The translations under genes were made by a program, and so were the position numbers. From Roseateles sp. (GTDB taxonomy: Bacteria; Pseudomonadota; Gammaproteobacteria; Burkholderiales; Burkholderiaceae_C), in NCBI GenBank assembly GCA_036401055.1, contig DASWWC010000109.1:1563-65562 (forward strand): DNA of 64,000 bases, written 5' to 3'. Position 1 is the first letter of the stretch. The number at the start of each line of letters is the position of its first letter. Below, piece after piece: positions 11,245-60,662 of the stretch. The notes under the pieces are model-generated. The model was not told where the DNA came from. It did not search any database and saw nothing but the letters and a program-made list of their open reading frames with translations.

Positions 11245-12701
11245 AGGATTCTTCGCTCTTTGATGACGTCGGAGTAATAGCGGGCGGACAGCTTGGGCGT
11301 GCGCTTCTGCGTCTGGAAGTCGCAGTGCACGATGCCGAAGCGGCGCTGGTAGCCGTCTTCCCATTCGAAGTTGTCGATGAAGGACCACAGGAAGTAGCCC
11401 TTCAGCGGCACACCGTCGGCAATCGCCCGGTGCGCCTCGCGCAGATAGCTGCGCACGTAGTCGCGGCGGTGCAGGTCGAACACCTCGCCGTTGGCGACCG
11501 GCTCGTCGTCGTAGCCGCAGCCGTTCTCGGTGATGTGGATGGCCTGGTGGCCATAGACCTCGTGGCAGAAGCGCGGCCCCCAGTAGAGGGCCTGCGGCAC
11601 CAGGCGCAGCCAGGTGCTGTCCGCACGCGGGTAGTTGACCGGGTTGGTGACGGCCTCGTAGCCGCCGTTCTTGCCGGCGCGCACGAAGGTACCGCTGTAG
11701 ATGTTCAGGCCCAGGAAGTCAGTCGGCAGGCTGATGAGGTCGAAGTCGCCCGGCTTCACGTCGGGCGCGTCGGCGCCCACGCGCTTCAGGAAGTTCTCGG
11801 TGTATTTGCCGGCCTGGATGGCGCCCAGGATCTGCGCGTTGCGGTCGATGAACCAGGCCTTGGCGGCGGCGATGTCGGCGGGCTTCTCGGACACAGGCAC
11901 GGCCACGGCGCAGTTGTCGGTCAGTCCCACGACGGCGCCCTTGCCGCCGAACTGGCGCACCGCGCGCACGCCATGGCCATGGCACAGCAGCGCGTGGTGG
12001 TAGGTCTGGTTGACGACCTTGTTGCTTTCCTTGCGGCCCGGCGCCTTGGTGCCGGTGCCATAGCCCAGCAGCGTGAAGCAGACGATCTCGTTCAGCGTGA
12101 TCCAGTGCTTCACGTCCTTGGCGAAGGCCTTCACCACCGTGTCGGCGTACTGCGCAAAGGCATCCACCGTCACGCGCGAGGTCCAGCCGCCGCGGTCTTC
12201 CAGAGCCTGGGGCATGTCCCAGTGGAAGAGCGTGACCCAGGGCTCGATGCCGTGCTTCTTCATGCTCGCGAAGACGCGGTGATAGAAGTCCAGTCCTTTC
12301 TGGTTCAGCTCGCCGTCGCCCTTGGGGTAGATGCGCGGCCAGGCGATGGACAGGCGGTAGGTCTTGATGCCCAGCGAGGCCATCAACGCGAAGTCTTCGT
12401 CGAAGCGGTGGTAGTGGTCGCAGGCCACATCCAGCGTGTCGCCGCCGTGCACCTTGCCGGGGATGCGCGCGAAGCGGTCCCAGACGGACTCGCCCTTGCC
12501 GTCCTCGAAGGCCGCCCCCTCGATCTGCGCGGAGGCCGCAGCGACGCCGAACACGAAATCGGCGGGGAACTGGCTGGCGTATGTCAGCGTTGTCGTCCCT
12601 GGCGCAGCAAGGTGCTGCGGGGTGGCGGCAAGCGACGCCGTGGGGGCCAGGGCGGCGGCGGCAAACAGTTGGCGGCGGCGCGGGGAGCGGAGCGAAGTCA
12701 T
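11241..12701 (-). CDS. GH1 beta-glucosidase, Tat-exported paralog
   Basis: SD GAGG then MTSLRSPRRRQLFAAAAL; FPADFVFGVAAASAQIEG, TLNE, ITENG, DNFEW. Confidence 0.92.
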   Translation of the reverse strand: MTSLRSPRRRQLFAAAALAPTASLAATPQHLAAPGTTTLTYASQFPADFVFGVAAASAQIEGAAFEDGKGESVWDRFARIPGKVHGGDTLDVACDHYHRFDEDFALMASLGIKTYRLSIAWPRIYPKGDGELNQKGLDFYHRVFASMKKHGIEPWVTLFHWDMPQALEDRGGWTSRVTVDAFAQYADTVVKAFAKDVKHWITLNEIVCFTLLGYGTGTKAPGRKESNKVVNQTYHHALLCHGHGVRAVRQFGGKGAVVGLTDNCAVAVPVSEKPADIAAAKAWFIDRNAQILGAIQAGKYTENFLKRVGADAPDVKPGDFDLISLPTDFLGLNIYSGTFVRAGKNGGYEAVTNPVNYPRADSTWLRLVPQALYWGPRFCHEVYGHQAIHITENGCGYDDEPVANGEVFDLHRRDYVRSYLREAHRAIADGVPLKGYFLWSFIDNFEWEDGYQRRFGIVHCDFQTQKRTPKLSARYYSDVIKERRIL

Positions 12702-12782
12702 CGGGTGTTCCTCGTTGGACCGCATGGCGGGCGACAGGCCCGTGGCGGCGCGAGGAATATAGGGCGACCACATGCTCCAGTG

Positions 12783-12921
12783 CGGGCCGAGCGCCGGGCC
12801 GCTCCCAAGCCGGCCCGCGTAGGGCAATGCTTGCTGGTTAATCCGGCAAGCATCGCCGTCCCCGCGGGGGACCGGCTAGGTGTGCCCGCGTTCAGCGCGG
12901 CAGAACTGGACGAGGGGCTCA
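12783..12921 (-). repeat. Structured intergenic repeat, copy A
   Basis: TGA-GCCCCTCG...GCCGGTCCCC...GGCGATGCTTGCCGG...GGGCCGGCTTGGGAGCGGCCCGGCGCTCGGCCCG; shared with copies at 20038, 47175 and 59618. Confidence 0.92.
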
Positions 12922-14274
12922 CAGGATCTTGCGAGCCTTGATGACCTGCGCGTAGTAGCGCGCCGACAGCTTGGGCGTGCGCGCCAGCGTCTCGTAGTCG
13001 CAGTGCACGATGCCGAAGCGGCGCTGGTAGCCGTCTTCCCACTCGTAGTTGTCGATGAAGCTCCACAGAAAGTAGCCTTTCAGCGGTACGCCGTCGCTGA
13101 TGGCGCGATGGGCTTCGCGCAGGTGGTTGCGCAGGAAGTCGCGGCGGTGCAGGTCCAGCACCTCGCCGTTCACCACCGGCTCGTCGTTGTAGCCGCAGCC
13201 GTTCTCGGTGATGTAGAGGGCCTGGTGGCCGTAGCACTCGGCCGCGAAGCGCGTGGCCCAGTAGATGCACTGCGGCGCGATGTGCAGCCAGGGGCTGTCG
13301 GCCTTCGGGTAGTTGGCGGGCAGGGCGACGATTTCCCACGCACCATCCTTGCCGGCGCGCACATAGGTGCCGGTGTAGATGTTCAGACCGAGGTGGTCGG
13401 TGGGCAGGCTGATGAGGTCGAAGTCGCCGGGCTCGACCGGGGGCGCGTCGGCGCCGACGCGGGCCAGGTAGTCGGCCGGGTACTGGCCGGCATGCATCGC
13501 GCCCAGCACGTGGGCGTTCTTCTCCAGGAACCAGGCCTTGGCGGCCGCGATGTCCTCGGGCGTCTCGGTGACGGGGATGCAGACGTCCAGGTTGTCGGTC
13601 AGACCGACGACCGCGCCGGCGCCGCCGAACTCGCGCACCGCGCGCACGCCGTGGCCATGGCACAGCAGCGCGTGGTGGAAGGTCTGGTTGACGACGGCTG
13701 CGCTCTCCTTGCGGCCCGGCGCCTTGGTGCCGTAGCCATAGGCCAGCAGCGTGAAGCAGCGGATCTCGTTCATCGTGATCCAGTGCTTCACCTCGCCGGC
13801 GAAGGCCTTGACGATGGTGTCGGCATAGCGGGCGAAGGCGTCCACCGTCACGCGCGAGGTCCAGCCGCCGCGGTCTTCCAGGCTCTGCGGCAGATCCCAG
13901 TGGAACATCGTCACCCAGGGCTCGATGCCGTGCTTCTTCATGCTGGCAAACAGCCGGTGATAGAAGTCCAGGCCGGCCTGGTTCAGCTCGCCGTCGCCGT
14001 TGGGGAAGATGCGCGGCCAGGCGATGGACAGGCGGTAGTGCTTGTAGCCGAGGGACGCCATCAGCGCGAAGTCCTCGTCGAAGCGGTGGTAGTGGTCGCA
14101 GGCCACGTCCAGCGTGTCGCCGTCGTGCACCTTGCCGGGCGTGCGGGAGAACCGGTCCCAGATGGATTCGCCCTTGCCGTCCACGAAGGCCGCGCCCTCG
14201 ATCTGGGCGGACGCGGCGGCAACGCCGAACAGGAAGTCGGCGGGGAAGGGGCTGGAGTAGGTCAGTGCGGTCAT
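12919..14274 (-). CDS. GH1 beta-glucosidase, cytoplasmic paralog
   Basis: No signal peptide; FPADFLFGVAAASAQIEG, TMNE, ITENG, DNYEW; highly similar to the adjacent GH1. Confidence 0.93.
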   Translation of the reverse strand: MTALTYSSPFPADFLFGVAAASAQIEGAAFVDGKGESIWDRFSRTPGKVHDGDTLDVACDHYHRFDEDFALMASLGYKHYRLSIAWPRIFPNGDGELNQAGLDFYHRLFASMKKHGIEPWVTMFHWDLPQSLEDRGGWTSRVTVDAFARYADTIVKAFAGEVKHWITMNEIRCFTLLAYGYGTKAPGRKESAAVVNQTFHHALLCHGHGVRAVREFGGAGAVVGLTDNLDVCIPVTETPEDIAAAKAWFLEKNAHVLGAMHAGQYPADYLARVGADAPPVEPGDFDLISLPTDHLGLNIYTGTYVRAGKDGAWEIVALPANYPKADSPWLHIAPQCIYWATRFAAECYGHQALYITENGCGYNDEPVVNGEVLDLHRRDFLRNHLREAHRAISDGVPLKGYFLWSFIDNYEWEDGYQRRFGIVHCDYETLARTPKLSARYYAQVIKARKIL

Positions 14275-14295
14275 GGGGTCAGGTCACCAGCGCCG

Positions 14296-15570: not shown

Positions 15571-15571
15571 G

Positions 15572-17857
15572 TCAGTGCAGGTCCTTGGCGCTCAGCGTGC
15601 GCGACTGGCCGGGCTGGAGCTTCAGCTCGACGATGCGCCCGCCCACGCGGACGCGGCCACCGCCCGCGCCGGCGGCGGAGCGTACCGTGGCGCGCGTCAG
15701 CTGGCCGTCGGCCCAGGCCATGTCCACCTCGAAGCCGCCGCGCGCGCGCAGGCCCTTCACCGCGCCGTCGCGCCAGGCGGCGGGCAGCGCGGGCAGCAGC
15801 GTGAGGGCGTCGTCGTGCGACTGCAGCAGCATCTCGGCGATGGCGGCGGTGGCGCCGAAGTTGCCGTCGATCTGGAACGGCGGGTGGGTGTCCAGCAGGT
15901 TGGGGTAGGTGCCGCCCTGGTGCACCTCGCCGCCCTCGCGGGCCTTGCGCGCGCCGGGCTGGGCCAGCAGGCCGCGCAGCAGCTGATGGGCGTGGTCGCC
16001 GTCCCGCAGCCGCGCCCAGAACGCGATCTTCCAGGCCATCGACCAGCCGGTGCTGACGTCGCCGCGCGCCTGCAGCGTCTTGCGCGCCGCGGCGGCCAGC
16101 TCGGGCGTGCGTGCGGGCGAGATCTGCCGGCCGGGATACAGCGCATACAGGTGCGACACGTGGCGGTGCGTGTCCTTCGGCGTGTCCAGCACCGGGTCGG
16201 TCAGCTCGTCCAGCCATTCCAGCAGCTGGCCCCAGCTGCCGATGCGCGGGCCGGCCAGGCGGTCGCGGATGGCCGCCGCACGCGCCTGCGCGGCCTGGTC
16301 ACCCAGCACCGCCGCGGCCTGCGCCATGTTGTCGAAGTGGTCCCACAGGATCTGCTGGTCGTAGGCCACGCCGTCCTGGATGGGGCCGTGCTCGGGCGAC
16401 CAGCCGTTGGGCGCCACCAAGCGGCCATCGGGCAAGGCCTTCAGCCGGTCTGCCCAGAACTGGCCCACCTCCTTCAGCACCGGCCAGGCTACGTCGCGCA
16501 GGAAGGCCTTGTCCTGCGTGAACGCGTAGTGCTCCCAGAAGTGGCGCGCGTACCAGGCGTTGCCGGTCATGTTCCACAGGTAGCCCTGGTGGCCGAACGG
16601 GTTGGTCTCGGTGCGCAGCGCCCAGCCGCGCACGGGCTTGCCGCTCGCGGTCAAAAAGGTCTCCTGCGGCGGCTGCACGGAGTGGTCCCAGGGCGGCGTC
16701 TCGGGCGGCAACGCGGTCGGGTCCTTCAGCGCCAGCGCGGCGCGTTCGGACACGGCCTTGCGCCATTCGGGCACCAGCCGCTGCACGAAGCGGTGGAAGG
16801 GCCGCGCGGCCTCGGCGAGGTTCGTCACCTCGGCCGGCCAGTAGTTCATCTGCAGGTTGATGTTGGAGTGGTAGTCGCTGTTCCACGGCGGCTGCAGGTG
16901 GTCGTTCCACAGGCCTTGCAGGTTGGCGGGCAACGAATCGCGCGAGCTGCTGACCAGCAGGTAGCGGCCGTAGTGGAAGTAGAGCGCCTCCAGTTCGGGG
17001 TCGTCGCCGTACTGTGTGTAGGCGGCCAGTCGCGCATCGGTCGTCAGCGCACGGCGCGCGGCCGGGCTGGTGCCGAGGTCCAGGCTGACGCGGCCCAGCA
17101 GCGCGTCGACGTCGGCGTGGTGCTCGGCGCGCAGCTGCTGCCAGGGCTTGGCCGCCGCGGCGGCCACCTGCGCCTGCACGCGCGGCAGCGGCGGCTGGCC
17201 ATCGGCAAAGCTGGTGCCGGCGCCGAGGATCAGCGTCAATGAAGTGCAGCCGCTGAAGCGCAGCGTGTTGCCTTCGACGGCGACGCTGCCGCCCTCATGC
17301 AGCACGCGCAGCTGGCTGGCGTAGGCCAGGCCGTTGGGCAGCGCGCCGACCGCGCTCAGCGTGGTGTTGGCCGCGCTGAGCGCCGCACCGTGCCGGTCGG
17401 TCAGCGCGATGCGGCCGTGGTAGCGGCCCGGCGCGCTGGCGTGCAGGTGCCAGACCAGCACCTGCGCCGGGTGGCTGGCGAAGGTCTCGCGCGCAAAGCG
17501 CACGCCGTCCTGCGTGTAGCCCAGGCGGTGCTCGGCGCGGGCGATGTCCAGCTCGCGGCGGTAGGCGCTGGCCGGTGTGTCGGCGCCGTCCAGCGTCAGC
17601 ACCACGTCGCCGAAGGGCTGGTAGGCGCCCATGGTCTTCGTGTCGCCGGTCCACAGCGTGATGTCGTTGAACTGCAGCCGGTCGCGCGCGACCTGGCCGA
17701 ACAGCATCGCGCCCAGGCGGCCGTTGCCGATGGGCAGCGCCTGCTGCTCCCAGCCCTGGGGCGTGTCGGGCGCGGGCCGGTCGTAGTGCAGCACCAGCTC
17801 GCGCGCCTGCAAGGGCAGCGCGACGGCCAGGCACAGGGTGACGAGCAGACGCTTCAT
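15572..17857 (-). CDS. GH95 alpha-1,2-L-fucosidase (or alpha-L-galactosidase)
   Basis: Start MKRLLV overlaps the GH74 stop; [47 protein letters not shown]. Confidence 0.93.
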
Positions 17858-20025
17858 GCGCGGGGCTTGCCGATGACGACGCCTCGCCCCTCGGGCGCAA
17901 GGTAGACGACGCCGAACTCCAGCGGGTCGGCGGCCAGTGCGCCCAGGCGGCCGTAGCGATGGGCGTCGTCGTTGATGCGCTGGAAGCTGGCGCCGGCGTC
18001 GATGGAGCGGTACAGGCCCTCGACGGGGTCGGCGCTGCCGGTGGCCACCTTGCCCCACACGTAGATGGCGTGATAGCTCGCGCCCGGCGCTGCCTTGCCG
18101 ATGGCCACGCGCCAGGGCTCGGCCACGCCGCGCAGGGTGCGGGGCCGGGCATCCATGCCGGGCAGATGCAGCAGGCCTTCGGGCGTGGCCAGCCACAGGT
18201 CACGCGGCTTGCCCGGCGCGCAGACCAACTGGGCGCTCTGCCAGTTCTGCAGCCGCGGCAGGCCGGTGATGCCGGGCTGGAAGCTGGCGCCGCCGTCCAC
18301 GCTGACGAGGATGCGGCCGTTGGCGGGGTCCAGCACGTAGAACACGCCTTCCAGGGCACGGTCGGCCACGGGCGTCAGCGTCACGTCGCGGGCTTCGGGC
18401 CAGCCTTGGGCGGTGGCCCAGGTCTTGCCACGGTCGCGCGAGAACAGCGCGGCCTGCTTGTCGGGCGCCCACAGGAAGAAGCCGCCCTTGGCCGACACGG
18501 CGATGCGGCCGCTGGAGGCGGTCCAGCCTTCCGGCGTCTTGGCGTTGCGCGTGCTGGGGCCGAAGGGGCGCCAGCTGGCGCCGCCGTCGGGCGACCAGTA
18601 GCCGCCGTTGGCCGCACCGTCGGACGTGCGCGCGACGATGCCGGGGTTGAGTTCGGCGACCGCGATGGAGCGATTGGTCTCGCCCGCGGGCAGGAAGAGG
18701 CCGTTCTTCGGGCCTTGCGCGAGGTCGTCCCACGCGGCGCCGGACACGTCGCCCATCGCCGCCAGCAGCGAGGCGCCGCCCGAGGGGCTCTCCAGACCCA
18801 GCACGGCGGTCTCTTCGAGGTTGTCCACCGTGAAGGCCCAGTCCACCGGGTCTGCGCCGAGGTTGGCGGTCATCCACAGGCCGTAGCCGGTGCCGTAGAC
18901 GGCGTGCTTGCCGTCGTGCGGATCGATCTTGAAGTCGGCCATCCAGTGGCCGGCCTTGTCGTGGCGCTTGGCCTGGTAGGCCTGCAGCCAGGGGTGGGTG
19001 CTGGCGTCGAAGCGGGAGCGCGGGCTCAGCGGCGTCCAGGTCTTGCCGAAGTCGTCGGAGAGGTAGATCTCGTCGCCGCCGTTCCAGCGCTCGATGGTGG
19101 TCACGACGACGCGGCCGGGGCGCTGCGCATCGGTGTCGAGGCCGGAGTAGCCGAAGGTCTGGTTGGCGCTCGGCCTGGACGGCGTGATGTCGAGCCACTG
19201 GCCCTCGGGCGTGCGGCGCCAGACGCTGCCGGTCCTGGCGTTGCTGGGGTTCACCACCTGGCCGGCGTCGCCCGCGGCGAAGCTGACGTAGAGCGAGCCG
19301 TCGGGCCCGAGCGCGGCGCGCTGCGGCACCTGCGCCGGCAGCTCGGCGATGCGCTTGAAGCTGGCGCCGTCGTCGGTGGAAGCGTACAGGCCGGGCTGGT
19401 CGTGGCTGCCGGCGTAGAGGGCCTTGGCCTTGGGGTCGAACAGCACCAGGGACACATGCTTGCCGGGAAAACCGCCGACGCGGCTGAAGCTTGTGCCGCG
19501 GTTGCTGCTCTGCTGCAGGCCGTCCTGCGTGGTGCCCAGCAGCAGTCGCTCTGGGCGGTTCGGGTCCACCTGCAGGCGCTCGCCGCTGCCGCGGCCGGGG
19601 CCGTTGCCGGCCAGCCGCAGGCCCAGCTCATGCGTCTGCCAGGTGGCGCCGCGGTCGCTGGACGACAGCAGCGCAGCCTTGCGCGCCCACTCGCCGGTGT
19701 AGAGGCCGCAGGCGGCGTAGACGCGGTTGGCGTCGGTCGGGTCGACGGCGATGCTGAGCACGCCCATCAGATCGCCGTCGTCCTTGCCGAGGTGGTCTAG
19801 CAGCGGTTGCCAGCATCGGCCCTTGGGGTCGAAGCGGTAGGCGCCGCCGATGTCGGTGCGGGCGTAGAGCAGGCCCGGCTCGCGCGGGTGGAAGACGAAG
19901 CCGTCGATGAAGCCGCCGGCGCCATAGGTCAGACTGCGCCACTCGTAGGCGGGCGAGCCTTCGGCGGCCCAGGCGGGCAGCGTGAGCAGGCCGGCGGCCT
20001 GCAGCAATTGGCGGCGTTGCATCAT
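17854..20025 (-). CDS. GH74 xyloglucanase, Tat-exported
   Basis: QRRQLL signal; [27 protein letters not shown], multiple SxDxGxTW Asp-boxes, AMGDV. Confidence 0.92.
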
Positions 20026-20037
20026 GCTTTGCTTTCG

Positions 20038-20161
20038 CGGGCCGAGCGCCGGGCCGCTCCCAAGCCGGCCCGCCTGAGGCGATGCGCTTGCCGGTCAATC
20101 CGGCAAGCATCGCCGTCCCCGCGGGGGACCGGCCAAGGTACGCCTTGGACGAGGGGCTTCA
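20038..20161 (-). repeat. Structured intergenic repeat, copy B
   Basis: TGA-AGCCCCTCG-TCCAAGGCGTACCTTGG-CCGGTCCCCCGCGGGGACGGCGATGCTTGCCGG...GGGCCGGCTTGGGAGCGGCCCGGCGCTCGGCCCG. Confidence 0.92.
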
Positions 20162-21793
20162 TGGCGCCGGACGGCCCATCTTGATCTTGAGCATCACCGG
20201 CTCGGCGGGCAGGTTCAGGCCGTAGTCCACCTGGTCGCCGTTCCACACGCGCTCCATGACCCAGTGGCCTTGCGCGTCGAAGCGGCCCTGCTCGGCGCGC
20301 AGCATCATGCCGCTCGTGCCTTCGGCCGGTTCCATGCGCACGCGCACGCGCTGGCCGATGAGCAGGAACTCGTCGGCGCCAAGCTGCACCATGGCCGCGC
20401 CGCCTTCGGGCTCCTCGGTGCCGGCGGCCGGCTTGGCAAACTCGCCGCCCCAGGCGGACTCACCGAAGCGGCCCATGCGGTAGGTCAGCTTGGCCGACCA
20501 GCCGGGGAAGTCCAGCTGCTGCGGCTTGCGGTCGTCGCCCTCGCCGATGCCGCGCACCTTGCCGTCGAAGGACCACTGCGCCCACTGGCGCTGGATGGGC
20601 GCGAACATGCGGTAGACGCGTTCGAAGGGCTCGACCAGTTTCTTGTCCGTGGCCAGCGTGCCCAGCGGGTAGTTGGTGTAGTCGAAGTAGTCGGTGCCGA
20701 ACGGCGAGATGCCGATGGCGCCGCGGCCCAGCATGGCGTAGATGAAGCGCGCATAGGCGGGCTTGGTGCCGAACTCGGGCACCCACAGCGCGTTGTCCGG
20801 GCGCTGGAACAGCTTCAGGTTGGCGTTGACCTGGTCGGACTCCGGCCGGTAGATGTCGGGGCCCACGATGTCGATGGCGGGGGCGGCCGCTTTGTAGATG
20901 TCGATGACGTCCCAGGTCGGGCCGCCGCTGGCGAAGTTCTTGTTCCAGGGCTTGGGCGGCTGCTCCAGCGGGTCGCGCAGCGCGTTGTTGACGTACATCG
21001 GCAGGTCGTACACCGCACGGCCGGCGGCGGCGATCTCGCCGATGTAGCGGGCCACGGCCCAGGCGTGGAAGTACTCGTCGGCGTAGTCGCCGTAGACCTG
21101 GCGCCAGGTGCCGCTCGCGGCGGCCTTGGGCTTCTGCCGCGCCAGCACGGCGGCGGGCACGGGCTGCTCGAAGGCGGCCTGCGCGGCCTTGCCGAAGTCG
21201 CGCACCAGGCCGTAAGTGCCGACCTCGTTCTGCACCTGCACCATCAGCACGGTGCGCTCGGTGGCGTCGATCTTCTTCAGGTGCGACATGAACGCGACGA
21301 AGGCGCGCTTGTCTGCTTTCAACGTCTCGGCGCCGAAGGGGCTGAGGCTGTAGTTGGGCTTGCCTTCCTGGTCGAGATTGGGCGGGAAGCGCTTCGGGTT
21401 CAGCTTGACCCACTCGGGCGTGTACTGCGCGCTGGTGTTCTTCCAGGTCGCGAACCACAGGATCACGAGGCGCTTCTTCTGCTGGCGGGCTTCCTTGACC
21501 AGCGTGTCCACGAAGCTGAAGTCGAACTTGCCTTCGACGGGCTCGACCTGCTCCCAGGCCACCGGCATCAGCACGGTGTTGGCGTGCAGGTCGTTGGCGG
21601 CGTCCCAGACGGGCTTGAGCGCGCCCGGGTAGTTGCTGGAGTTGTGCGCCTGAGCACCGAGGATGAGGAAGGGCTTGCCGTCCACCAGCAGCGCGTGGCG
21701 GCCGTCCTTGGCGACGAGGCGGGGCAGCTCGGCGGCGCCGGCGGCGTTGAGCAGGCAGGCCAGGGCCGCTGCGAGGAGGAGCTTCTTCGTCAT
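20159..21793 (-). CDS. GH35 beta-galactosidase (DUF5597-type C-terminus), secreted
   Basis: LLVDGKPFLILG, AWEQVEPVEGKFDF, WFATWKN, VQVQNE, PDIY, RVWNGDQ. Confidence 0.85.
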   Translation of the reverse strand: MTKKLLLAAALACLLNAAGAAELPRLVAKDGRHALLVDGKPFLILGAQAHNSSNYPGALKPVWDAANDLHANTVLMPVAWEQVEPVEGKFDFSFVDTLVKEARQQKKRLVILWFATWKNTSAQYTPEWVKLNPKRFPPNLDQEGKPNYSLSPFGAETLKADKRAFVAFMSHLKKIDATERTVLMVQVQNEVGTYGLVRDFGKAAQAAFEQPVPAAVLARQKPKAAASGTWRQVYGDYADEYFHAWAVARYIGEIAAAGRAVYDLPMYVNNALRDPLEQPPKPWNKNFASGGPTWDVIDIYKAAAPAIDIVGPDIYRPESDQVNANLKLFQRPDNALWVPEFGTKPAYARFIYAMLGRGAIGISPFGTDYFDYTNYPLGTLATDKKLVEPFERVYRMFAPIQRQWAQWSFDGKVRGIGEGDDRKPQQLDFPGWSAKLTYRMGRFGESAWGGEFAKPAAGTEEPEGGAAMVQLGADEFLLIGQRVRVRMEPAEGTSGMMLRAEQGRFDAQGHWVMERVWNGDQVDYGLNLPAEPVMLKIKMGRPAP

Positions 21794-21814
21794 CGGGGAT
21801 TCGGGTGTAAGTGG

Positions 21815-21849: not shown

Positions 21850-21861
21850 AATTGCCGGAGA

Positions 21862-41771: not shown

Positions 41772-41773
41772 GT

Positions 41774-43959: not shown

Positions 43960-43967
43960 GGAGAGGT

Positions 43968-44336: not shown

Positions 44337-47177
44337 TTGATGAGTCCTCGCCTCCAACCCACCTTTGCGCTGCACCCCTTGGCGCTGGCCGGTCTGCTGG
44401 CCGTGGCCGCCCTCGGTGCAGCGCCATCAGCCTTGGCTCAGCAGGCCAGCCCTGAGTCCGCCAAGTCCGACGCCGAGACGCTGGACCGCGTGGAAGTGAC
44501 CGGTACCCGCGCCAGCCTGCAGAAGTCGCTGTCGCTCAAGCGCAATGCTGCCGGTGTGCAGGACAGCATCAGCGCGACCGAGCTGGGCCGCTTCCCCGAC
44601 AACAACGTGGCCGACTCGCTGAGCCACATCACCGGCGTGTCCATCTCCCGCACGGCAGGCGGCGAAGGCCAGAAGGTCAGCATCCGCGGCCTGGGCCCCG
44701 AGTACACGATCACGACCTTCAACGACCGGCTGCTGGGCACCGACAGCGCCGGCCGCTACTTCGCCTACGACGTGCTGCCGGCCGACGTCATCAGCGGCGC
44801 CGACGTCATCAAGTCCACGCAGGCCTCCATCATGGAAGGCGCCATCGGCGGCCTGGTGAACCTGCGCTCCGCCAGCCCCTTCGACCAGAAGGGCCAGCGA
44901 GGCCTGCTGCGCCTGGAGGCCGACCGCAACCAGATGAGCGCCCTCAACGGCCAGAAGCTGTCGGGCACCTACAGCAACACCTTCGGCAACCAGTGGGGCG
45001 TGCTGCTTGGCCTGGTCTATGCCAAGCGCGATGTGCGCACCGACACGGCAGGCAACGACGGCGGCTGGAGTCGCAACCCCATCCCCAGTGACCCCAGCCA
45101 GTTCTGGGAATGGGGCAACACCTGGGGTGGCGCCATCGACCCCAACGGCAACGGCCAGCTCGACGCGAACGAGGAAGGTCTGATCGGCCCCGGCCAGTTC
45201 CGCTTCGGCTCCATCATGGAGAACAAGAAGCGCCTGGCGCTGTCGGGCAAGGTCGAGTGGCGGCCCAGCGGCGACCTGAAGGTCGTCGTGGACGGCTTCA
45301 AGACGCGCCTGGATTCACCGCAGGTCGGCTACCAGCTGTCCTTCTACCCGCTGTACGCGCCGGGCCGCTGGTCCAACATGAAGATCACCAACGGTGTAGT
45401 GACCGACCTGACGCTGGCCAGCACCGACCCCGAGATGCGGCTCAACCCCGAGCTGCTGAACAAGACCGAGTACCGCGTCGTCGACACCGCCCTGTACGGC
45501 GTCAACGCCGAGTGGAAGCTGTCGCCGTCGCTCAAGCTCAAGGGCGACCTCTACGAGTCCACCTCCAGGCGCCATTCCGGCGGCAACGACAGCTACGTCG
45601 TGCTGCGCATGAACCAGCCCAACGTCACGCGCATCCAGCTCAACGGCGGCGCTGTGCCTGATGTGAAGACCACCTTCGCCGACGGCCGAGACCTGCAGAC
45701 CGGCCTGGCGCAAGGCCTGTTCAAGGCCAGCGACTTCAACACCCACTACTACAGCCGCGCCGGCGACAACATCGACGACAAGATCAACGGTGCCAAGGTC
45801 GACGCCGAGTGGTCGCTGGACCGCTTCTACATCGACAAGCTGAAGTTCGGCCTGAACCAGACCAACCGCAAGAAGTCGCGCGACCTGATCAACAACGCGC
45901 TCAACTCCGGCGCCGACCACTACTCGGGCCAGAACGCGATCAACGTCGGCGCGTTGGGCGGCAACGTCATCAACCAGTCGTTCAGTCCCAAGGGCTTCCT
46001 GGACGATGTCGGCGGCAACTTCCCGCGCAGCTTCCTGGGCTTCGATGTCGCCAACTACGCCGAGGCGCTGAAGGCCTGGGACGGCAAGCCCCGCCCGGGC
46101 GGCGGCGTCTACAGCTCCACGATCTCGGCGCCGCAGTGGAACCCGCTGCAAAGCTACCGCGTGACCGAGAAGACGACGACCGCCTTCGTGCAGGCCGACT
46201 TGTCGGGCGAGAGCTGGAACGCGGACGTCGGCGTGCGCTTCGTGCGCACCAAGACCACGGCCCAGGCCTGGGACGCGAAGATCCTGGACATCATCACGAA
46301 CGGTCCGTGGAACTACCAGGCCGTCTACGCGCCGCCGTCCACGGTGCAGCAGGAGTCCACGTACAACTTCGCGCTGCCGGCCGTCAACTTCACCTACCTG
46401 CTGACCGATGACCTGCAGCTGCGCCTGGGCGCCGCTAAGACCATGGCGCGGCCAGCGGTGGACAAGCTCGCGCCGACGAACACGACCGAGGGCATCTCCT
46501 GGGGCGACTTCACGCAGGTCTACGGCGGCAATGCCGAGCTGAAGCCCTACAGCGCCCGCCAGGTCGATGCGTCTCTGGAGTGGTACTACGCCAAGGACTC
46601 GGCGCTGACCTTCGCCGTCTACCAGAAGAACATCAAGAACCAGATCACCAACCTCTGGCTGTCGGGTCAGGACATCGGCGCGCCGGGCGGCCGGCTGTTC
46701 AATGTGCAGCGACCCGTCAACGGTGACAAGGCGACCGCACGCGGTTTCGAGGTCGGCTTCCAGCACCTGTTCGACAACGGTTTCGGCGTGCGGGCGCAAT
46801 ACACCCGCAACAAGTCGCGGGCCTGGGTGGGTGGCGTGGAGCGGGCGCTGGAAGGCATTGCGCCGGCCACCGCGTCGTTCGGCGTGCTGTACGAGCGCGG
46901 CCCGTGGAGCATGAGTGCCACGGCCGACCGCACCGATGCCTTCGTGACCGCCACCAACGTGATCGGCGCCAACTTCAACGAGACCGCCAATGCCGTGACC
47001 TGGGCGAGTGCGCAGGTGGCCTACGAGGTCAACCAGTGGCTGCGCATCAGCCTCGAAGGCAACAACCTGACCGATGCCGTGCAGGCGCCCAAGCTGGGCA
47101 ACGGCAATGTCAGCCTGCCCAATGGGTACTACCGCTACGGTCGCGCCTTCACCTTGGGCGCCAGCATCAAGTTTTGA
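44337..47177 (+). CDS. TonB-dependent transporter (AgaR locus)
   Basis: Signal peptide, TonB box DRVEVTG, DSISATELGRFPD, GNAELKP, C-terminal F; start may be ATG 44340. Confidence 0.95.
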   Translation: MMSPRLQPTFALHPLALAGLLAVAALGAAPSALAQQASPESAKSDAETLDRVEVTGTRASLQKSLSLKRNAAGVQDSISATELGRFPDNNVADSLSHITGVSISRTAGGEGQKVSIRGLGPEYTITTFNDRLLGTDSAGRYFAYDVLPADVISGADVIKSTQASIMEGAIGGLVNLRSASPFDQKGQRGLLRLEADRNQMSALNGQKLSGTYSNTFGNQWGVLLGLVYAKRDVRTDTAGNDGGWSRNPIPSDPSQFWEWGNTWGGAIDPNGNGQLDANEEGLIGPGQFRFGSIMENKKRLALSGKVEWRPSGDLKVVVDGFKTRLDSPQVGYQLSFYPLYAPGRWSNMKITNGVVTDLTLASTDPEMRLNPELLNKTEYRVVDTALYGVNAEWKLSPSLKLKGDLYESTSRRHSGGNDSYVVLRMNQPNVTRIQLNGGAVPDVKTTFADGRDLQTGLAQGLFKASDFNTHYYSRAGDNIDDKINGAKVDAEWSLDRFYIDKLKFGLNQTNRKKSRDLINNALNSGADHYSGQNAINVGALGGNVINQSFSPKGFLDDVGGNFPRSFLGFDVANYAEALKAWDGKPRPGGGVYSSTISAPQWNPLQSYRVTEKTTTAFVQADLSGESWNADVGVRFVRTKTTAQAWDAKILDIITNGPWNYQAVYAPPSTVQQESTYNFALPAVNFTYLLTDDLQLRLGAAKTMARPAVDKLAPTNTTEGISWGDFTQVYGGNAELKPYSARQVDASLEWYYAKDSALTFAVYQKNIKNQITNLWLSGQDIGAPGGRLFNVQRPVNGDKATARGFEVGFQHLFDNGFGVRAQYTRNKSRAWVGGVERALEGIAPATASFGVLYERGPWSMSATADRTDAFVTATNVIGANFNETANAVTWASAQVAYEVNQWLRISLEGNNLTDAVQAPKLGNGNVSLPNGYYRYGRAFTLGASIKF

Positions 47178-47313
47178 AGCCCCTCGTCTGGTCTCGCCTG
47201 CTGAACGCGGGCGAGTCCAGCCGGTCCCCCGGGGGGCGGCGATGCTCGCGGCATTGAGCCGCTCGCACATCGCCATGGCGGGCCGGCTTGGGAGCGGCCC
47301 GGCGCTCGGCCCG
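47175..47313 (+). repeat. Structured intergenic repeat, copy C
   Basis: TGA-AGCCCCTCG...GCCGGTCCCCC...GGCGATG...CATCGCC...GGGCCGGCTTGGGAGCGGCCCGGCGCTCGGCCCG. Confidence 0.9.
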
Positions 47314-47321
47314 AATACCTT

Positions 47322-48458
47322 ATGAACGCACGACGACCTCCGACAGTACGAACTGGATCTCTGATGCGACTTGTTGTCTCCTCCGTTGCCGCCCTGCTTG
47401 CCGGGGCGGCTTTTTTCTCCGCGCAGGCGGCCGAGTCCAGCTACACGATGGCGGACTACACCCGCGTCGAGAAGATCGACGTCCACCTGCACCTGCACAA
47501 CGCCGCACCGGCCTTCATGCAGGCCGCGCAGCGCCAGAAGTTCAAGGTGCTGACGATCAACGTCGACTACCCCGACTTCCCGCCGCTGGCCGACCAGCAG
47601 CGCGTCGCCATCGCGCTGCGCCAGCAGTTCCCCAAGGATGTGGCCTGGGCCGCCAGCTTCTCGGTGGACGGCTCCGACCAGCCCGCCTGGCTGCCGGCCA
47701 CGCGCCAGCGCATCGCCGCAGCGATGCAGGCCGGCGCCGTCGGCATGAAGGTGTGGAAGAACATCGGCATGAGCCTGAAGGGCAAGAACGACAAGCTCGT
47801 CATGATCGACGACGCCCGTTTCGCACCGCTGTTCGACGACTTCGCGAAGCAGGGCATCCCGCTGCTGGGCCATCAGGGCGAGCCGCACAACTGCTGGCTG
47901 CCGCTGGACAAGATGACGGTCAACAATGACCGCGAGTACTTCAAGGCGCACCCGCAGTACCACATGCACCTGCACCCCGAGATGCCCAGCTGGGAAGCGC
48001 AGATGGCCGCGCGCGACCGCATGGTGGCGGCGCATCCGACGCTGAAGTTCATCGGCGTGCACCTCGCGTCGCTGGAGCGCGACGTGGGCGAGCTGGGCGC
48101 CTTCCTCGACAGGTTCCCTACCGCCGTGGTCGACGTGGCTGCGCGCATCGGCCAGCTGCAGCACCAGAGCCAGAAGGACCGCGAGCGCGTGCGCCGCTTC
48201 TTCATCAAGTACCAGGACCGCGTGATGTACGGCAGCGACATGGCCCAGGCGCCCGACCAGGACGGCGCCGCGCTGGGCAAGGAAGCCGAGGGCGTGTGGC
48301 GCATGCACTGGCGCTACTTCAACACCGCGGAGAGCTTCAAGGTGAGCGACCTCGACAAGCCGGTGCAAGGCCTGGCGCTGCCCAAGGCCGTGGTGGACAA
48401 GCTCTACCGCACGAATGCCGAACGCGCCTTCCCCGGCGCCTGGGGAGCCCAGCGATGA
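47322..48458 (+). CDS. Secreted amidohydrolase-superfamily metallohydrolase
   Basis: Signal peptide; IDVHLH, GMKVWK, GHQGEP, VHLAS, YGSD metal-ligand pattern; alternative start at 47364. Confidence 0.85.
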   Translation: MNARRPPTVRTGSLMRLVVSSVAALLAGAAFFSAQAAESSYTMADYTRVEKIDVHLHLHNAAPAFMQAAQRQKFKVLTINVDYPDFPPLADQQRVAIALRQQFPKDVAWAASFSVDGSDQPAWLPATRQRIAAAMQAGAVGMKVWKNIGMSLKGKNDKLVMIDDARFAPLFDDFAKQGIPLLGHQGEPHNCWLPLDKMTVNNDREYFKAHPQYHMHLHPEMPSWEAQMAARDRMVAAHPTLKFIGVHLASLERDVGELGAFLDRFPTAVVDVAARIGQLQHQSQKDRERVRRFFIKYQDRVMYGSDMAQAPDQDGAALGKEAEGVWRMHWRYFNTAESFKVSDLDKPVQGLALPKAVVDKLYRTNAERAFPGAWGAQR

Positions 48459-53025: not shown

Positions 53026-53181
53026 CCGCGCCCCAGCCCACGCGTCTCTTTTCTCCCTGTCATGGCACCGGTCGCGCCGGTGCCCCGGCCGCGCTCGCGC
53101 TGACGCGGCCGGGTTCACCTGTCCAACGCGCTGTGCTCATCCACCTTCGGGCCTGACGCCCGACCTCACGAGGAGACCCCG

Positions 53182-55020: not shown

Positions 55021-55045
55021 ATAGGCGAGGCGCCGGCGGACGCAT

Positions 55046-55077
55046 CGAGCGCGCCTTGCAGCCGCAAGGCGCGCTCG
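55046..55077. terminator. 14-bp perfect hairpin between convergent genes
   Basis: CGAGCGCGCCTTGC-agcc-GCAAGGCGCGCTCG; no U-tract on either side. Confidence 0.55.
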
Positions 55078-55088
55078 GGCGGTATCGG

Positions 55089-56036: not shown

Positions 56037-56143
56037 CTGTGTCTCCAAAGCGATGTGGGTGGGACCACCGGCGCATCTGCCAAGGGCGGGCGCGACAGGC
56101 AGTGCGGCTCTTACGCGCCGTTCATGGCGCTGGATCAGCGGCA

Positions 56144-56773: not shown

Positions 56774-57004
56774 TCATTCGCTCGCGCTCTCCATGGAAAC
56801 CCGCAGCCCGCTGACGCCGAGCTATGAAATCCGGCGCTCGATCTATCGCGAACCCGGATGCCTTGTTGCTCTGATGTAACCCATATGAAATCTCGATAAG
56901 ACAACGCTGACAACGCATATCTCCGGCAAGCCGGCCGTCCCTAGCATCGCGGCCGCTCTGGCCCTCGACGGTCAGGGTTCAAACCAACAAACCCGGAGAT
57001 AAAC

Positions 57005-59620
57005 ATGCGGAAGAACCGTCTGAGCGTGCTCATCAGCGCGCTGTTCGTGCTGCCCGGCGTGGCCGTTGCGCAGCAGGCCACCCCCGACACCAAGGCCGAG
57101 TCCAAGAACGAACTGGAGACCGTCACGGTCGTCGGCATCCGGGCCGCGGTGCGCAATGCGCTGCAGGCCAAGGAGCTGAGCAACAGCATCATCGAGAGCA
57201 TCGCGTCCGAGGACATCGGCAAGCTGCCCGACACCACCATCGCCGAGTCGCTGGCCCGCCTGCCCGGCCTGGCCGCTGGCATCGACCGCGGCAACGCCAG
57301 CCAGATCGTCGCGCGCGGCCTGGGCCCGCGCTTCATCGGGGCGACGCTGAACGGCCGCGAGTTCGCGTCGTCCGAGCCCGACCGCGCGGTGCGCTTCGAG
57401 ATGTTCCCGTCCGAGTCGGTCTCGGGCGCCACCATCCACAAGACACAGTCGGCCGAGATCGTCGAAGGCGGCATTGCCACCAGCATCGACCTGCAGACCG
57501 TGTCCCCGCTGGCGCTGCGCGAGCGCTCGCTGTCGCTGAAGGCCGATGCACTGTACTACCAGCTGGGCAAGGACATCGATGGCGCCAAGAAGTACGCGCC
57601 GCGCCTGGGCGGCATCTACGTTGACCAGTTCGGCAACCGCACGCTGGGCGTGGCGCTGGCCTTCAGCTACTACGACCAGCCCTCGCTGGAGGACCGTGTC
57701 GACCACTGGGGCTTCAACACGACGAACTTCGCGCCGGCCGTGGGCATCGAGCCCTGGGGCTTCCAGCACAAGGTCAAGCGCGGCACCAACAAGCGTTCCA
57801 GCGTGCTGGGCAAGGTGGAGTTCAAACCCGATGCCAACTTCCAGCTGACCGCCGACGTCTACGCCGCGCGCTCGCGCATCCATGAGCCCGAGCTGTACCA
57901 CACGGTGGACATTGGCAACTGGGACGGCTGGCGTTCCGGGGCCTACAGCAAGATCACCAAGGACGGCAACTACGTCACCGGCGCCACCGTCGCCGACGTG
58001 GACCTGAAGACCATCAACTCGCTGTGGAAGCAGAACATGTCCAACTTCGCGACCGGCGTGAACGCGAAGTGGAAGGCCGGCGAATGGCAGTTGGAGGCCG
58101 ACGCCGCCTACTCCAAGGCCGACCGCGACACCTTCTGGTCCGCCATCGGCCTGGACATGCTGAACAAGGGCACGGTCACCTGGAACTTCCCGCGCGATCA
58201 GTGGATGACCTATGGCTTTAGCGCCGACACGGGCAACCCCGCCGCTTACGGCAACTGGAGCTACGAGACCTGGGGCCCCAGCTACGCCGGCACGTTGCAT
58301 GACCGCCTGGACTCGCAGCAGCTGACCGCCAGCCGCCGCCTGGCCTGGGGTGATGTCAACAAGATCAAGATGGGCCTGCGCGCCACGCAGCGCGGCAAGT
58401 CCTACGAGCAGGTGTCGTGGAACTACGGCAGCAACGCCACCATCGCCACCAGTGACCTGCAGCGCGTGACCGTCGCTGGCCGCCCCGACTTCGTCGCACT
58501 GGGCAGCGGCTTCGAGGAGGCCGTCACCAAGTACTTCGGCGCCGCCGCGTTGAGCGCCGCCGGCCGCACGCCGACGAACTGGGACAAGGTCGGCAACAAC
58601 TGGAGCGCCAGCGAGGACGGCGTCGCGGCCTTCGTGCAGGCCGACCTGGCCGGCACGCTGGGTGGCCTGAACTACCGCGGCAACGCGGGCCTGCGCGTGG
58701 CGCACAGCAGCCAGACCGGCTATGGCTACGAGCAGGTCAACGGCGGCACGCTGAAGGCCGTGTCCGATGGCACGAGCTACACCAAGGTGCTGCCCAGCCT
58801 CAACCTCGTGCTGAGCCTGGACAGCGAGGACGAGCACCAGCTGCGCGTCGGCGTCGCCCGCGCGCTGTCGCGCGCGCCGCTGGACGTGATGAACGCGGCT
58901 CACACCGTCAACATCGACCCCAACGGCGTGCAGCCCACCACCATCTCGGGCGGCAACCCGCGCCTGAAGCCCATGATGGCCGACCAGCTGGACATCAGCT
59001 ACCAGTACTACTTCGGCAAGGGCGGCCTGGTGTCGGCGGGCGCGTTCTACAAGAAGGTGACCGACTACATCGGCATCGCGTCGGTGGCCGGCACCTACGA
59101 AGGCAAGCCGGCGTTCTACAGCAGCCAAGTCAACCGTGACGGTGGCACGGTGAAGGGCCTGGAGCTGGTCTACCAGCAGGCGTTCACGTCGCTGCCCGCG
59201 CCGTGGAACGGCCTGGGCGTGTCGACGAACTACACCTACACGACCAGCGACATCAAGGAGAACGGCGACCGCAGCGGCGCGACCTGGGTGCCCATCTCGG
59301 CCAACGGCCTGATGAAGCACAACAGCGGCCTGACGCTCTGGTACGAGCGCAACGGCTTCGAGGCACGCCTGGCCGCGAACCGCCACTCGGCCTACCACCG
59401 CGCGCCGACCTGGGACTCCACCGCCTTCCAGAAGAACGGCGACGAGACCTGGGTGTCCATCAACCTCGCCCAGCAGATCACGCCGCAGCTGCAGGCGCGT
59501 TTCGGCATCGAGAACGCGACCAACCAGCGTGTGACCTACAGCGACCCGCAGTACGCGCTGCGCCAGGTGAACTTCCAGTTCGGACGCCGCTTCAACATCG
59601 GTGTGAGCTACAAGTTGTGA
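57005..59620 (+). CDS. TonB-dependent transporter
   Basis: SD GGAG; TonB box ETVTVVG; ESIASEDIGKLPDTTIAESLARLPG; GNPRLKP; C-terminal YKL. Confidence 0.95.
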   Translation: MRKNRLSVLISALFVLPGVAVAQQATPDTKAESKNELETVTVVGIRAAVRNALQAKELSNSIIESIASEDIGKLPDTTIAESLARLPGLAAGIDRGNASQIVARGLGPRFIGATLNGREFASSEPDRAVRFEMFPSESVSGATIHKTQSAEIVEGGIATSIDLQTVSPLALRERSLSLKADALYYQLGKDIDGAKKYAPRLGGIYVDQFGNRTLGVALAFSYYDQPSLEDRVDHWGFNTTNFAPAVGIEPWGFQHKVKRGTNKRSSVLGKVEFKPDANFQLTADVYAARSRIHEPELYHTVDIGNWDGWRSGAYSKITKDGNYVTGATVADVDLKTINSLWKQNMSNFATGVNAKWKAGEWQLEADAAYSKADRDTFWSAIGLDMLNKGTVTWNFPRDQWMTYGFSADTGNPAAYGNWSYETWGPSYAGTLHDRLDSQQLTASRRLAWGDVNKIKMGLRATQRGKSYEQVSWNYGSNATIATSDLQRVTVAGRPDFVALGSGFEEAVTKYFGAAALSAAGRTPTNWDKVGNNWSASEDGVAAFVQADLAGTLGGLNYRGNAGLRVAHSSQTGYGYEQVNGGTLKAVSDGTSYTKVLPSLNLVLSLDSEDEHQLRVGVARALSRAPLDVMNAAHTVNIDPNGVQPTTISGGNPRLKPMMADQLDISYQYYFGKGGLVSAGAFYKKVTDYIGIASVAGTYEGKPAFYSSQVNRDGGTVKGLELVYQQAFTSLPAPWNGLGVSTNYTYTTSDIKENGDRSGATWVPISANGLMKHNSGLTLWYERNGFEARLAANRHSAYHRAPTWDSTAFQKNGDETWVSINLAQQITPQLQARFGIENATNQRVTYSDPQYALRQVNFQFGRRFNIGVSYKL

Positions 59621-59709
59621 GCCCCTCGCCCAGTCTCGCCCGGCTGAACGCCGGCGAGTCTGGTCGGTCCCTCTGGGGGCCGGCTTGGGGCGGCCCGGCG
59701 CTCGGCCCG
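59618..59709 (+). repeat. Structured intergenic repeat, copy D (internally shortened)
   Basis: TGA-GCCCCTCG...GTCGGTCCCTCTGGGGGCCGGCTTGGGGCGGCCCGGCGCTCGGCCCG; lacks the central GGCGATG hairpin. Confidence 0.88.
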
Positions 59710-59741
59710 AAGACCCCACGCTTGCGCAAAATGGCGCGTTC

Positions 59742-60662
59742 ATGAAGAACCGTTTTCTGCTCGTGCTGCCGCTGGCCTGCGGGCTGGGCCTGCTGGCCTG
59801 GGCCTGGTGGTCCGATCCGGCGCCGCCGTCCGTGCCGGACGAGGCGCCGCCAAGCTTGAGGCCGCCCGCGCTGCTGGCGCTGGGCGCCACACCCACCGAC
59901 GTTGCTGCGGTGGCCGCGCCGCCGGGTCAAGGCAAGGACTGTGCACCCGTCGTGCCGCTGCCGCCGCATGAAGAAGTGCTCGCCACGCAGCGAGCCCTGG
60001 CCTCGCTCACCAGCGCATCGGGCGGCGACGCCGTGCTGGCGCTGCTGCTGCACAAGCCCGCGGCCGACGATCAAGCCGCGCAGGCACGGTGGGCCGCCCA
60101 GGTGCGTGAGGCTGCGTTGCGCTCCGGTGATGTGGTCGCGCTGCGCTGGGCCGCCGGCGCCTGCCGTGAGTTGCCGCAGGCCACCGCCTGCCGCCGCGAG
60201 CTGCTGCAGCAGCGCCTGCGGCTGGAGCCGGACAACGGCCTGCACTGGCTGGAGTGGCTGCATGAAGACCCCGGCGCGGCCGACGAGGCCTGGGCCGGTC
60301 TGGCCGCGTCACGTCACTGGCGGGAGCGCCCCGCGGCCTGGCGCGAGCGGCTGGATCGTGCGCTGCCCCCGGGCTTGCCGGCCGCGCAGCGCCAGGTCTT
60401 GCTGGCGCGCCTGGTGCAGCGCGAGGTCGACTGGTCGCCTGCGCCGCCGACCGATCTCGCGCAGGTCTGCGGCCATTGGGGGCCGGGTCATGCCCTGGGC
60501 GCGGCGTGTCACCACGCGAGCACGCTGATGCTGACCCAGGCCGACTCGCCCCGCGCCCGCGCGCAGGGCGAGCAGCTGGCGCAGCTGACCGGGCAGGACG
60601 TGCCACCCGCCATCCCGGCGGCGGCGCCCGAGCCTGCGGGCTGCGTGCAATCAAGCCGGTGA
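59742..60662 (+). CDS. Hypothetical N-terminally anchored helical protein with several Cys
   Basis: N-terminal TM, Pro-rich linker, TPR-like LRLEPDNGLHWL segment; no SD seen. Confidence 0.6.
   Translation: MKNRFLLVLPLACGLGLLAWAWWSDPAPPSVPDEAPPSLRPPALLALGATPTDVAAVAAPPGQGKDCAPVVPLPPHEEVLATQRALASLTSASGGDAVLALLLHKPAADDQAAQARWAAQVREAALRSGDVVALRWAAGACRELPQATACRRELLQQRLRLEPDNGLHWLEWLHEDPGAADEAWAGLAASRHWRERPAAWRERLDRALPPGLPAAQRQVLLARLVQREVDWSPAPPTDLAQVCGHWGPGHALGAACHHASTLMLTQADSPRARAQGEQLAQLTGQDVPPAIPAAAPEPAGCVQSSR

Follow-up and report, generated by a model that had tools for sequence, protein, structure and literature searches.

Mycobacterial interspersed repetitive units (MIRUs) are dispersed repeats of mycobacteria with an internal open reading frame (ORF) that overlaps the neighboring genes, an arrangement proposed to make their insertion harmless to translational coupling; the available sections of PMC12548453 and PMC3184786 trace this proposal to the 1997 description (Supply et al. 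1997). Here we describe a hairpin-rich repeat in 64,000 nucleotides of Roseateles sp. DNA (GenBank assembly GCA_036401055.1, contig DASWWC010000109.1, positions 1,563 to 65,562 of the forward strand; the window). Four copies, A to D, each lie between two co-directional genes that are joined by mini-ORFs running from the upstream stop to the downstream start. We propose that this is a MIRU-like mobile repeat which is probably kept translatable where it interrupts coupling, its mini-ORF likely preserving translational coupling after insertion.

Bridging of neighboring genes by the repeat

The initial annotation, made from the letters of the window, had described mini-ORF bridges at A, B, C (in two steps) and D; all their coordinates, lengths and overlaps were confirmed, and all six gaps named there as free of both element and bridge lacked a bridge under strict, lenient and broad rules (6/6). 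Closure of all four copies is not typical of the genome. Under a strict rule, used for discovery and in relatives (one-step closure by NTGA or TGATG), closure was found in 8 of 42 copies genome-wide, which makes four of four in the window a lucky draw. Starts and stops were taken from a gene caller trained on this genome, with reliable stops and less reliable starts; copies qualified when both anchors were present and the gap measured 100 to 320 nt, and null models exchanged the left junction, the core or the right linker between copies. Strict closure occurred in 7 of 53 sense copies versus 9 of 407 element-free gaps of this genome. Among copies with both anchors it was 8/42 versus 2.2 to 3.5 in shuffles (11 of the 53 were dropped for a missing anchor or a gap outside 100 to 320 nt), and 5/38 versus 1.5 to 2.5 without the window. 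Eight relatives contributed 240 loci, of which 228 were anchored, 145 qualified and 120 were independent; 15/120 were closed versus 8.1 to 11.4 shuffled. The counts of 8/42 and 15/120 rule out strict closure as a universal property of the repeat.

The commonest junction besides NTGA was of a type outside the initial annotation, TGA-N-ATG (+1), in which the stop lies one base ahead of the downstream start; it was present in 42/162 copies (26%) versus 5/420 element-free gaps (1%). Under a broad rule (start at −4 to +9 of the upstream stop, stop at −4 to +6 of the downstream start), 71/162 copies of the discovery set were closed versus shuffle means of 33 to 44, and 26/420 element-free gaps of 100 to 320 nt were bridged. 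Frames stopping in the core (12 versus 24), fusing with the downstream gene (10 versus 20 to 29) or overrunning its start (11 versus 20 to 31) were depleted relative to shuffles. An ATG lay within −4 to +9 of the upstream stop in 93/162 copies versus 71/420 element-free gaps. For a first held-out set, three new genomes supplied 90 loci, of which 74 were anchored, 45 qualified and 29 were independent; 13/29 copies were closed versus 7.2, 8.3 and 10.6 in the three shuffles (P = 0.0015, 0.0075 and 0.079). A second set, taken without deduplication from 30 loci in three further genomes, had 16 qualifying copies, and 6/16 were closed versus 2.0 to 2.7 (P = 0.001 to 0.014). Pooled without the window, strict closure, here counted as −4 only, was found in 22/187 copies versus 11.6 to 15.5 shuffled, and closure at −4, −1, +1 or +2 junctions in 72/187 versus 33.6 to 45.4. 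Altogether, 84 of 191 co-directional copies (~44%) were bridged by the broad rule, with a 3′ junction of +1 in 33 and of −4 in 41 of the 84. Closure exceeds both element-free gaps and shuffles, in a large minority of copies rather than in all.

Some of the bridged gaps scored as element free (C160, C70 on the minus strand, C213 and C21) contain other or shorter hairpin repeats, one of which shares the 3′ module in antisense. Further repeat families of the genome may thus be bridged as well.

The initial annotation had also noted weak Shine-Dalgarno (SD) sequences downstream of B, C and D. Duplex energies of 0.1, −1.7/−3.1 and −1.5 kcal/mol, respectively, versus −5.9 kcal/mol at A bear this out. 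An SD of −4.5 kcal/mol or stronger preceded 0.25 of the genes downstream of bridged copies and 0.33 of those downstream of unbridged copies versus 0.43 to 0.46 of element-free genes; a weakening confined to bridged genes was not found, the SDs being somewhat weaker at bridged and unbridged copies alike.

Dependence of bridging on the ancestral junction

Bridging depends on the ancestral junction, being frequent where it was tight and rare at long gaps. When copies were grouped by the gap in the empty ortholog (taken from this genome for the copies of relatives), 31/47 were bridged at gaps of ≤6 nt, 11/22 at 7 to 30 nt and 2/19 at >30 nt (P = 7.5e-5). Counting one copy per ortholog cluster, an ATG lay near the upstream stop in 112/190 co-directional versus 9/45 convergent copies, the latter lacking a gene with which to couple, and the element could be read through in 147/190 versus 11/45. 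Antisense copies, in which the ends are swapped and another peptide is encoded, were bridged in 9/16 cases versus 2.4, 3.3 and 6.9 in shuffles (not deduplicated). Among 48 orthologous filled pairs, some of which share clusters, 21 were bridged in both members (20 with differing gap lengths), 22 in neither, and 5 were discordant.

Two explanations had been offered at the outset: that ribosomes cross and melt the element and are handed to the next gene, or that the element inserts at stop/start overlaps and only coupling-preserving variants survive. Insertion at overlaps only was not borne out, and tight junctions were just somewhat more frequent among empty sites (47/88) than in the genome at large (1100/2669). 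The survival at coupled junctions of only those variants that preserve coupling is well supported by the shuffles, the held-out genomes, the empty sites and the convergent and antisense copies, albeit for the ~44% of co-directional copies that are bridged.

The same data bear on a rival account, in which selection keeps ribosomes on the structured insert against Rho-dependent polarity, decay or occlusion of the ribosome-binding site while gene 2 starts afresh and the placement of the stop is secondary. At tight sites (empty gap of ≤6 nt) the core is open to read-through in 46/47 copies, more than the 31 that are exactly bridged; 40/191 frames terminate within the linker, over 6 nt ahead of the start, many linkers carry a TGGA motif 7 to 9 nt before it, and fused and overrunning frames are strongly depleted. 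However, early termination in the linker was no commoner than in shuffles of the discovery set (32 versus 27 to 32) and just slightly commoner for the first held-out set (8 versus 5 to 6). Frames that close at the start, by contrast, were doubled (71 versus 33 to 44), and TGA-N-ATG junctions occur in 26% of copies versus 1% of element-free gaps. We regard read-through without hand-over as improbable, though it is the rival that survives best.

The four junctions of the window

Closure at A and B is kept across different gap lengths in relatives. At A, 2 of 17 relatives were filled, both closed with −4 at either end over gaps of 181 and 223 nt (217 nt here). The 15 empty relatives comprised 1 with a direct overlap, 6 with an element-free bridge of 25 to 29 codons and 8 with no bridge, two element assignments having been revised by eye. 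The frames of the six (L474, L476, L477, L479, L480 and L483) open just past the stop of the upstream GH1 gene and close at the ATGA of the downstream one; several of them open like the 5′ spacer of the repeat and may be scars of a lost copy. At B, 10 of 13 syntenic relatives were empty, 2 were filled and 1 held an unrelated insert with no bridge. Nine of the ten empty relatives overlap directly (−4/−1; two of the nine starts were read by eye), and the empty ATGA form is also present on a contig of sequencing run X7. The gaps of the two filled relatives, 130 and 67 nt, were both closed like the 133-nt copy of the window. In one ortholog of B (L461), the ATGA junction contains an unrelated 115-nt palindromic insert, the frame of which stops 38 nt before the downstream start.

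At C, 20 relatives comprised 10 empty with a −1 (TGATG) overlap, 1 with a 14-nt gap, 1 with a different upstream gene and 8 filled, 5 of the last with a one-step bridge. The downstream start taken for C in the initial annotation, ATG 47322, was not upheld. It is in frame, 14 codons upstream of 47364, and present in this genome only, whereas orthologs start at the equivalent of 47364, so the relay at C ends on a nonconserved start; the conserved start is overlapped by TGA 47362-47364, the TGATG junction of the relatives. The central module is shortened here, which brings the first frame onto a stop in a loop, so the two-step relay is best read as a probably degenerate bridge. The other downstream starts stand, those at A and B by agreement with orthologs and that at D with the N terminus of one ortholog (L521). 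The GH74 name given to the product downstream of B was not confirmed by Pfam. Coordinates are listed in Table 1.

Table 1. Repeat copies, bridging mini-ORFs and flanking genes at the four junctions of the window (aa, amino acids)
Feature	Coordinates	Strand	Remarks
Copy A, core	12783..12918	−	136 nt, hairpin modules
Bridge mini-ORF A	12698..12922	−	74 aa; GTG 12922 (GTGA) on upstream stop, ATGA on start 12701
Upstream gene of A, glycoside hydrolase family 1 (GH1)	12919..14274	−	Pfam PF00232
Downstream gene of A, GH1	11241..12701	−	Pfam PF00232; start agrees with orthologs
Copy B, core	20038..20157	−	120 nt, first hairpin short
Bridge mini-ORF B	20022..20162	−	46 aa; ATG 20162; ATGA at each end
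Upstream gene of B, beta-galactosidase-like	20159..21793	−	Weak GH42/GH35 matches and DUF5597 (Pfam)
Downstream gene of B, BNR/Asp-box repeat protein	17854..20025	−	Pfam; start 20025 agrees with orthologs
Copy C, core	47179..47313	+	135 nt
Mini-ORF 1 of C	47174..47257	+	27 aa; TTG overlaps TonB-dependent receptor stop; ends in second-hairpin loop
Mini-ORF 2 of C	47254..47325	+	TTG start; 23 aa; ends on ATG 47322
Upstream gene of C, TonB-dependent receptor	44340..47177	+	Pfam PF00593, PF07715
Downstream gene of C, amidohydrolase	47364..48458	+	Pfam PF04909; conserved start 47364
Copy D, core	59621..59709	+	89 nt, without second hairpin
Bridge mini-ORF D	59617..59745	+	42 aa; GTGA to ATGA
Upstream gene of D, TonB-dependent receptor	57005..59620	+	Pfam PF07715, PF14905
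Downstream gene of D	59742..60662	+	306-aa protein, no Pfam match

The two GH1 genes flanking copy A (11241-14274) are tandem paralogs, 84% identical over 300 nt. A second tandem paralog pair in the window (4236-5342 and 5374-6486) is 71 to 73% identical over ~100 nt.

Sequence, structure and host range of the repeat family

BLAST searches of the assembly (4.8 Mb, 70% GC) with copies A to D as queries located the repeat at 88 merged places, counting partial copies, and nhmmer found 90 matches, 44 of them full length; it is the commonest intergenic repeat of this genome. The core consensus is 133 nt, and the modular repeat spans 90 to 220 nt overall, with core lengths mainly of 115 to 117 or 131 to 136 nt and forms with an extra module of up to ~215 nt. 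Copies A, B and C fold more stably than shuffled sequences (z = −3.3, −3.1 and −3.3, respectively), and copy D scored −1.7. In an alifold consensus of 70 sampled cores, compensatory pairs support hairpins 1 and 2, and the long-range pairs were invariant and had no covariation support. No Rfam family matched anywhere in the window at its gathering score. The 5′ motif alternates between CGTC and CGCC without a fixed tag, and 5′ spacers frequently read ATG-NN-GC. Other intergenic 18-mer repeats of the same genome include one stretch with ~11 identical copies and another with ~9 copies, which may represent insertion-sequence termini or something intron-like.

The repeat was detected in all 18 genomes of the same genus and in none of 12 genomes from other families of the same order. 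In an exact-pattern scan, the records were Pelomonas, Roseateles or Comamonadaceae/Burkholderiales bins (among the matches listed, 80 of 117). Across the family, 77/251 genomes (62/201 genera) gave a match, most of them through a near-invariant 36-nt 3′ module only. In many of these 62 genera the last 36 nt (window 47277-47313) are 94 to 100% identical while the sequence upstream differs, and the module is a candidate recognition site for a mobilizing enzyme. We found no account of this repeat family or of such bridges in the literature on Burkholderiales, most subscription journals lying outside the search, and the portion of PMC5082802 at hand holds no precedent for a bridging repeat.

Placement and mobility

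From 375 anchored copies in 12 genomes, 297 were left at one per ortholog cluster: 218 co-directional and sense, 54 convergent, 16 antisense, 5 divergent and 4 lying at contig ends. In 252 of 272 copies, the distance from the 5′ anchor to a sense stop was ≤16 nt. The repeat lands behind stop codons in general, not solely at stop/start overlaps. In five cases (L033, L050, L176, C255:14322 and C31:11231), the upstream gene runs into the repeat and stops at a TGA in the loop of the first hairpin, gaining a short C-terminal tail.

The repeat is likely mobile. The assignment of 316 copies to 264 ortholog clusters, with most sites differing between species, implies recent mobility, and filled and empty alleles of the same junction were seen among relatives. 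Left and right junctions of 84 bridges matched no better than shuffled pairs (296 versus 299.7), which gives no sign of a general duplication of the target; divergence among the relatives may be too great to reveal one, and close relatives provided a few suggestive single cases. The sole PF01797 (Y1_Tnp) gene has no repeat copy within 1.5 kb, a search confined to this 84%-complete assembly, with relatives not searched. A RAYT-like Y1 transposase gene (L534:1459-2169), which no copies of the family flank, lies between two genes whose translations suggest a dGTPase-like protein and a glutamate synthase. The two ends of the consensus core do not complement each other and thus form no terminal inverted repeats, the true 3′ end being uncertain.

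If the repeat brought its own start and stop ends and duplicated a TGA-containing target, closure could be a by-product of insertion that arises without selection or function. Several observations lean this way. A tail of TGGA, three bases and CTGA is shared by 33 of 246 nonorthologous 3′ linkers (67 similar pairs versus 0 shuffled), so at least one subfamily supplies its own stop, and this tail occurs in convergent copies too. The junction word flanks the element on either side, as CATGA at B and as TGATG in orthologs of C, and an ATG lies near the stop in 15/64 convergent copies versus 57/646 ordinary convergent stops. However, a general target duplication is not demonstrable, convergent copies mostly lack start and read-through, antisense copies close as well although their ends are swapped, and phase is kept through length changes of 3 to 66 nt. 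An origin of the closures as mere insertion by-products therefore seems quite unlikely to us.

Conservation of frame rather than peptide

The initial annotation had held that the copies use different frames and that the peptide is not kept. The second part agrees with our data, which revealed no selection on a peptide; the first is only partly right, because the third phase is open in only 56/191 cores (167/191 and 161/191 for the other two) and one phase dominates, with 59, 21 and 5 of 85 bridge frames in the three phases. A phase was open more often when in use (P = 0.005 and P = 0.019 in two of the phases, P = 0.8 in the remaining one). The synonymous fraction did not differ significantly between used and unused frames (0.26 versus 0.24 and 0.22 versus 0.19), and no bridge peptide matched Pfam. 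What is kept is the frame rather than the peptide, the peptide itself apparently being a by-product.

These results bear on the idea that the repeat encodes a functional small peptide or an attenuator-like regulatory leader whose expression the coupling serves. The dominance of a single frame, the weak, distant resemblance of three small proteins to peptide B and the compensatory changes in the hairpins could be taken in its favor. Against it, used frames show no synonymous excess, three frames and both strands are in use, indels switch the frame midway, neither Pfam nor Rfam gave a match, and the flanking genes are functionally unrelated. A functional peptide was rejected, and the idea as a whole is very unlikely. 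A last rival is that closure arose by chance, the DNA being GC rich and poor in stops and the starts having been chosen by eye. Two usually open core frames and a window rate above that of the genome could be cited for it, but the shuffle, held-out, empty-site and convergent tests all contradict and refute it, and its probability is practically negligible.

Proposed mechanism and its limits

In the reading that we prefer and consider likely, coupling kept across the insert, the repeat would land behind a stop, oriented with transcription. At coupled genes, 130 nt of strong structure would uncouple gene 1 from gene 2. Ribosomes ending gene 1 would restart on the mini-ORF at the upstream stop, open up the hairpins and terminate next to the gene 2 start, and this start would then be reinitiated or become accessible; either is possible, and the sequence data fit both. 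Such traversal and hand-over may take place over bridged copies. Frame-breaking copies at coupled junctions would be purged while bridging variants persist, and behind convergent or independently started genes the frame would be left to decay. Part of the coupling hardware would be borne by the repeat itself, namely, the ATG-NN-GC 5′ spacer and, in one subfamily, the TGGA-motif tail with its TGA stop.

Several points weigh against this reading. The broad rule was set post hoc from flanks with many TGA-N-ATG junctions, although it was fixed before the held-out sets, and the excess under the strict rule is just ~1.4- to 2-fold (22/187 pooled). The left-junction shuffle was nonsignificant in the first held-out set (P = 0.079), as was the match of phases among NTGA/NTGA copies in relatives (19/44; P = 0.11). 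More than half of the co-directional copies (107/191) are unbridged, and SD strength does not differ between bridged and unbridged copies (P = 0.25). Starts from our own gene model carry errors (A was corrected by hand, and the start at C differs), and kin and ortholog pairs are not fully independent. The one-step bridge is lost in 3/8 filled C orthologs despite the −1 overlap at the empty site, and the sole syntenic relative of D (L520) has an unbridged, element-free gap of 119 nt, at odds with the tight-junction pattern. Structure just after the upstream stop lowers coupling, according to section 7 of PMC12548453 as available, and the hairpins of the repeat begin right at that place; bridges may therefore pass only part of the ribosomes.

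A bolder form of the proposal is possible but, in our estimation, rather doubtful. The repeat might be a self-coupling cassette, a translational counterpart of the self-splicing intron, with its own 5′ start and, in one subfamily, an SD-like motif and a 3′ stop. It would enter operon junctions and leave their coupling unbroken, and the hairpins it carries would retune the ratio of downstream to upstream protein. Hundreds of independent insertions across the Burkholderiaceae would then amount to a natural screen, according to which +1 TGA-N-ATG couples about as well as ATGA.

The idea formed for MIRUs, that a repeat survives in operons by means of a coupling ORF, passes internal controls in this Roseateles/Pelomonas repeat. 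If coupling is indeed preserved, the copies would show on a population scale that selection acts on coupling, for the sake of which a peptide without meaning is tolerated. Matched empty, bridged and broken alleles at one junction provide material for separating reinitiation from RNA unfolding and for studying +1 spacing. For annotation, the bridge mini-ORFs would not be genes to annotate for function, and they are a source of start-site miscalls.

Comparison with known systems

Compared with REP, BIME and REPIN sequences, as far as the available text of PMC3733652 (Di Nocera et al. 2013) goes, the repeat shares an abundance of genus-specific palindromes near or over stops, modular hairpins and compensatory changes. 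It differs from the 20- to 40-bp REP/REPIN palindrome in its 133-nt consensus and in having no fixed GTAG/CGTC terminal tag, and from the REP/RAYT system in that the single Y1_Tnp gene of the genome is not flanked by the repeat. Its length, the variable sequence where the tag would stand and, within this 84%-complete assembly, the missing flanked RAYT rule against REP/REPIN identity; the same excerpts contain no mention of a bridging ORF.

Like the MITEs (miniature inverted-repeat transposable elements) ERIC and RU, as described in the parts of PMC3184786 (Delihas 2011) at hand, the repeat is nonautonomous and shorter than 400 nt, with stem-loops, open frames and an occasional in-frame gene fusion. 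Unlike MITEs, it has no terminal inverted repeats in its consensus and no demonstrable target duplication, and gene fusions are depleted here rather than typical. The core ends without terminal inverted repeats speak against identity with a MITE, as far as the uncertain 3′ end allows. Short upstream ORFs and bicistronic designs, in the portion of PMC12548453 covered, resemble the bridges in having an ORF whose sole role is to end beside a start; unlike these, the bridging ORF is itself started by coupling, is borne on a repeat and occurs at hundreds of independent sites.

MIRUs, judged from the same partial sources, come closest. Both are short dispersed intergenic repeats that contain GC-rich inverted repeats, number in the tens in a genome and have filled and empty orthologous sites, and both carry an ORF from the upstream stop to the downstream start, but in our family only in a large minority of copies (84/191). 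The carriers belong to another phylum, Pelomonas/Roseateles rather than mycobacteria; the Roseateles repeat is modular and 90 to 220 nt long versus ~40 to 100 nt; flanking direct repeats of the MIRU tetranucleotide kind were seen at B and at C orthologs but not in general, among relatives that may be too diverged to show them; and no tandem variable-number arrays were seen in this genome. At the 3′ junction, spacings of +1 and −4 are about equally frequent (33 versus 41 of 84), and bridging, found in 44% of copies, depends on the ancestral junction and works in both orientations. As far as sequence comparison tells, +1 junctions and two-orientation bridging are the traits that distinguish the family from MIRUs. 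By this comparison, the repeat would be MIRU-like in behavior but a separate, new family and lineage, set apart from MIRUs by description (lineage and length).

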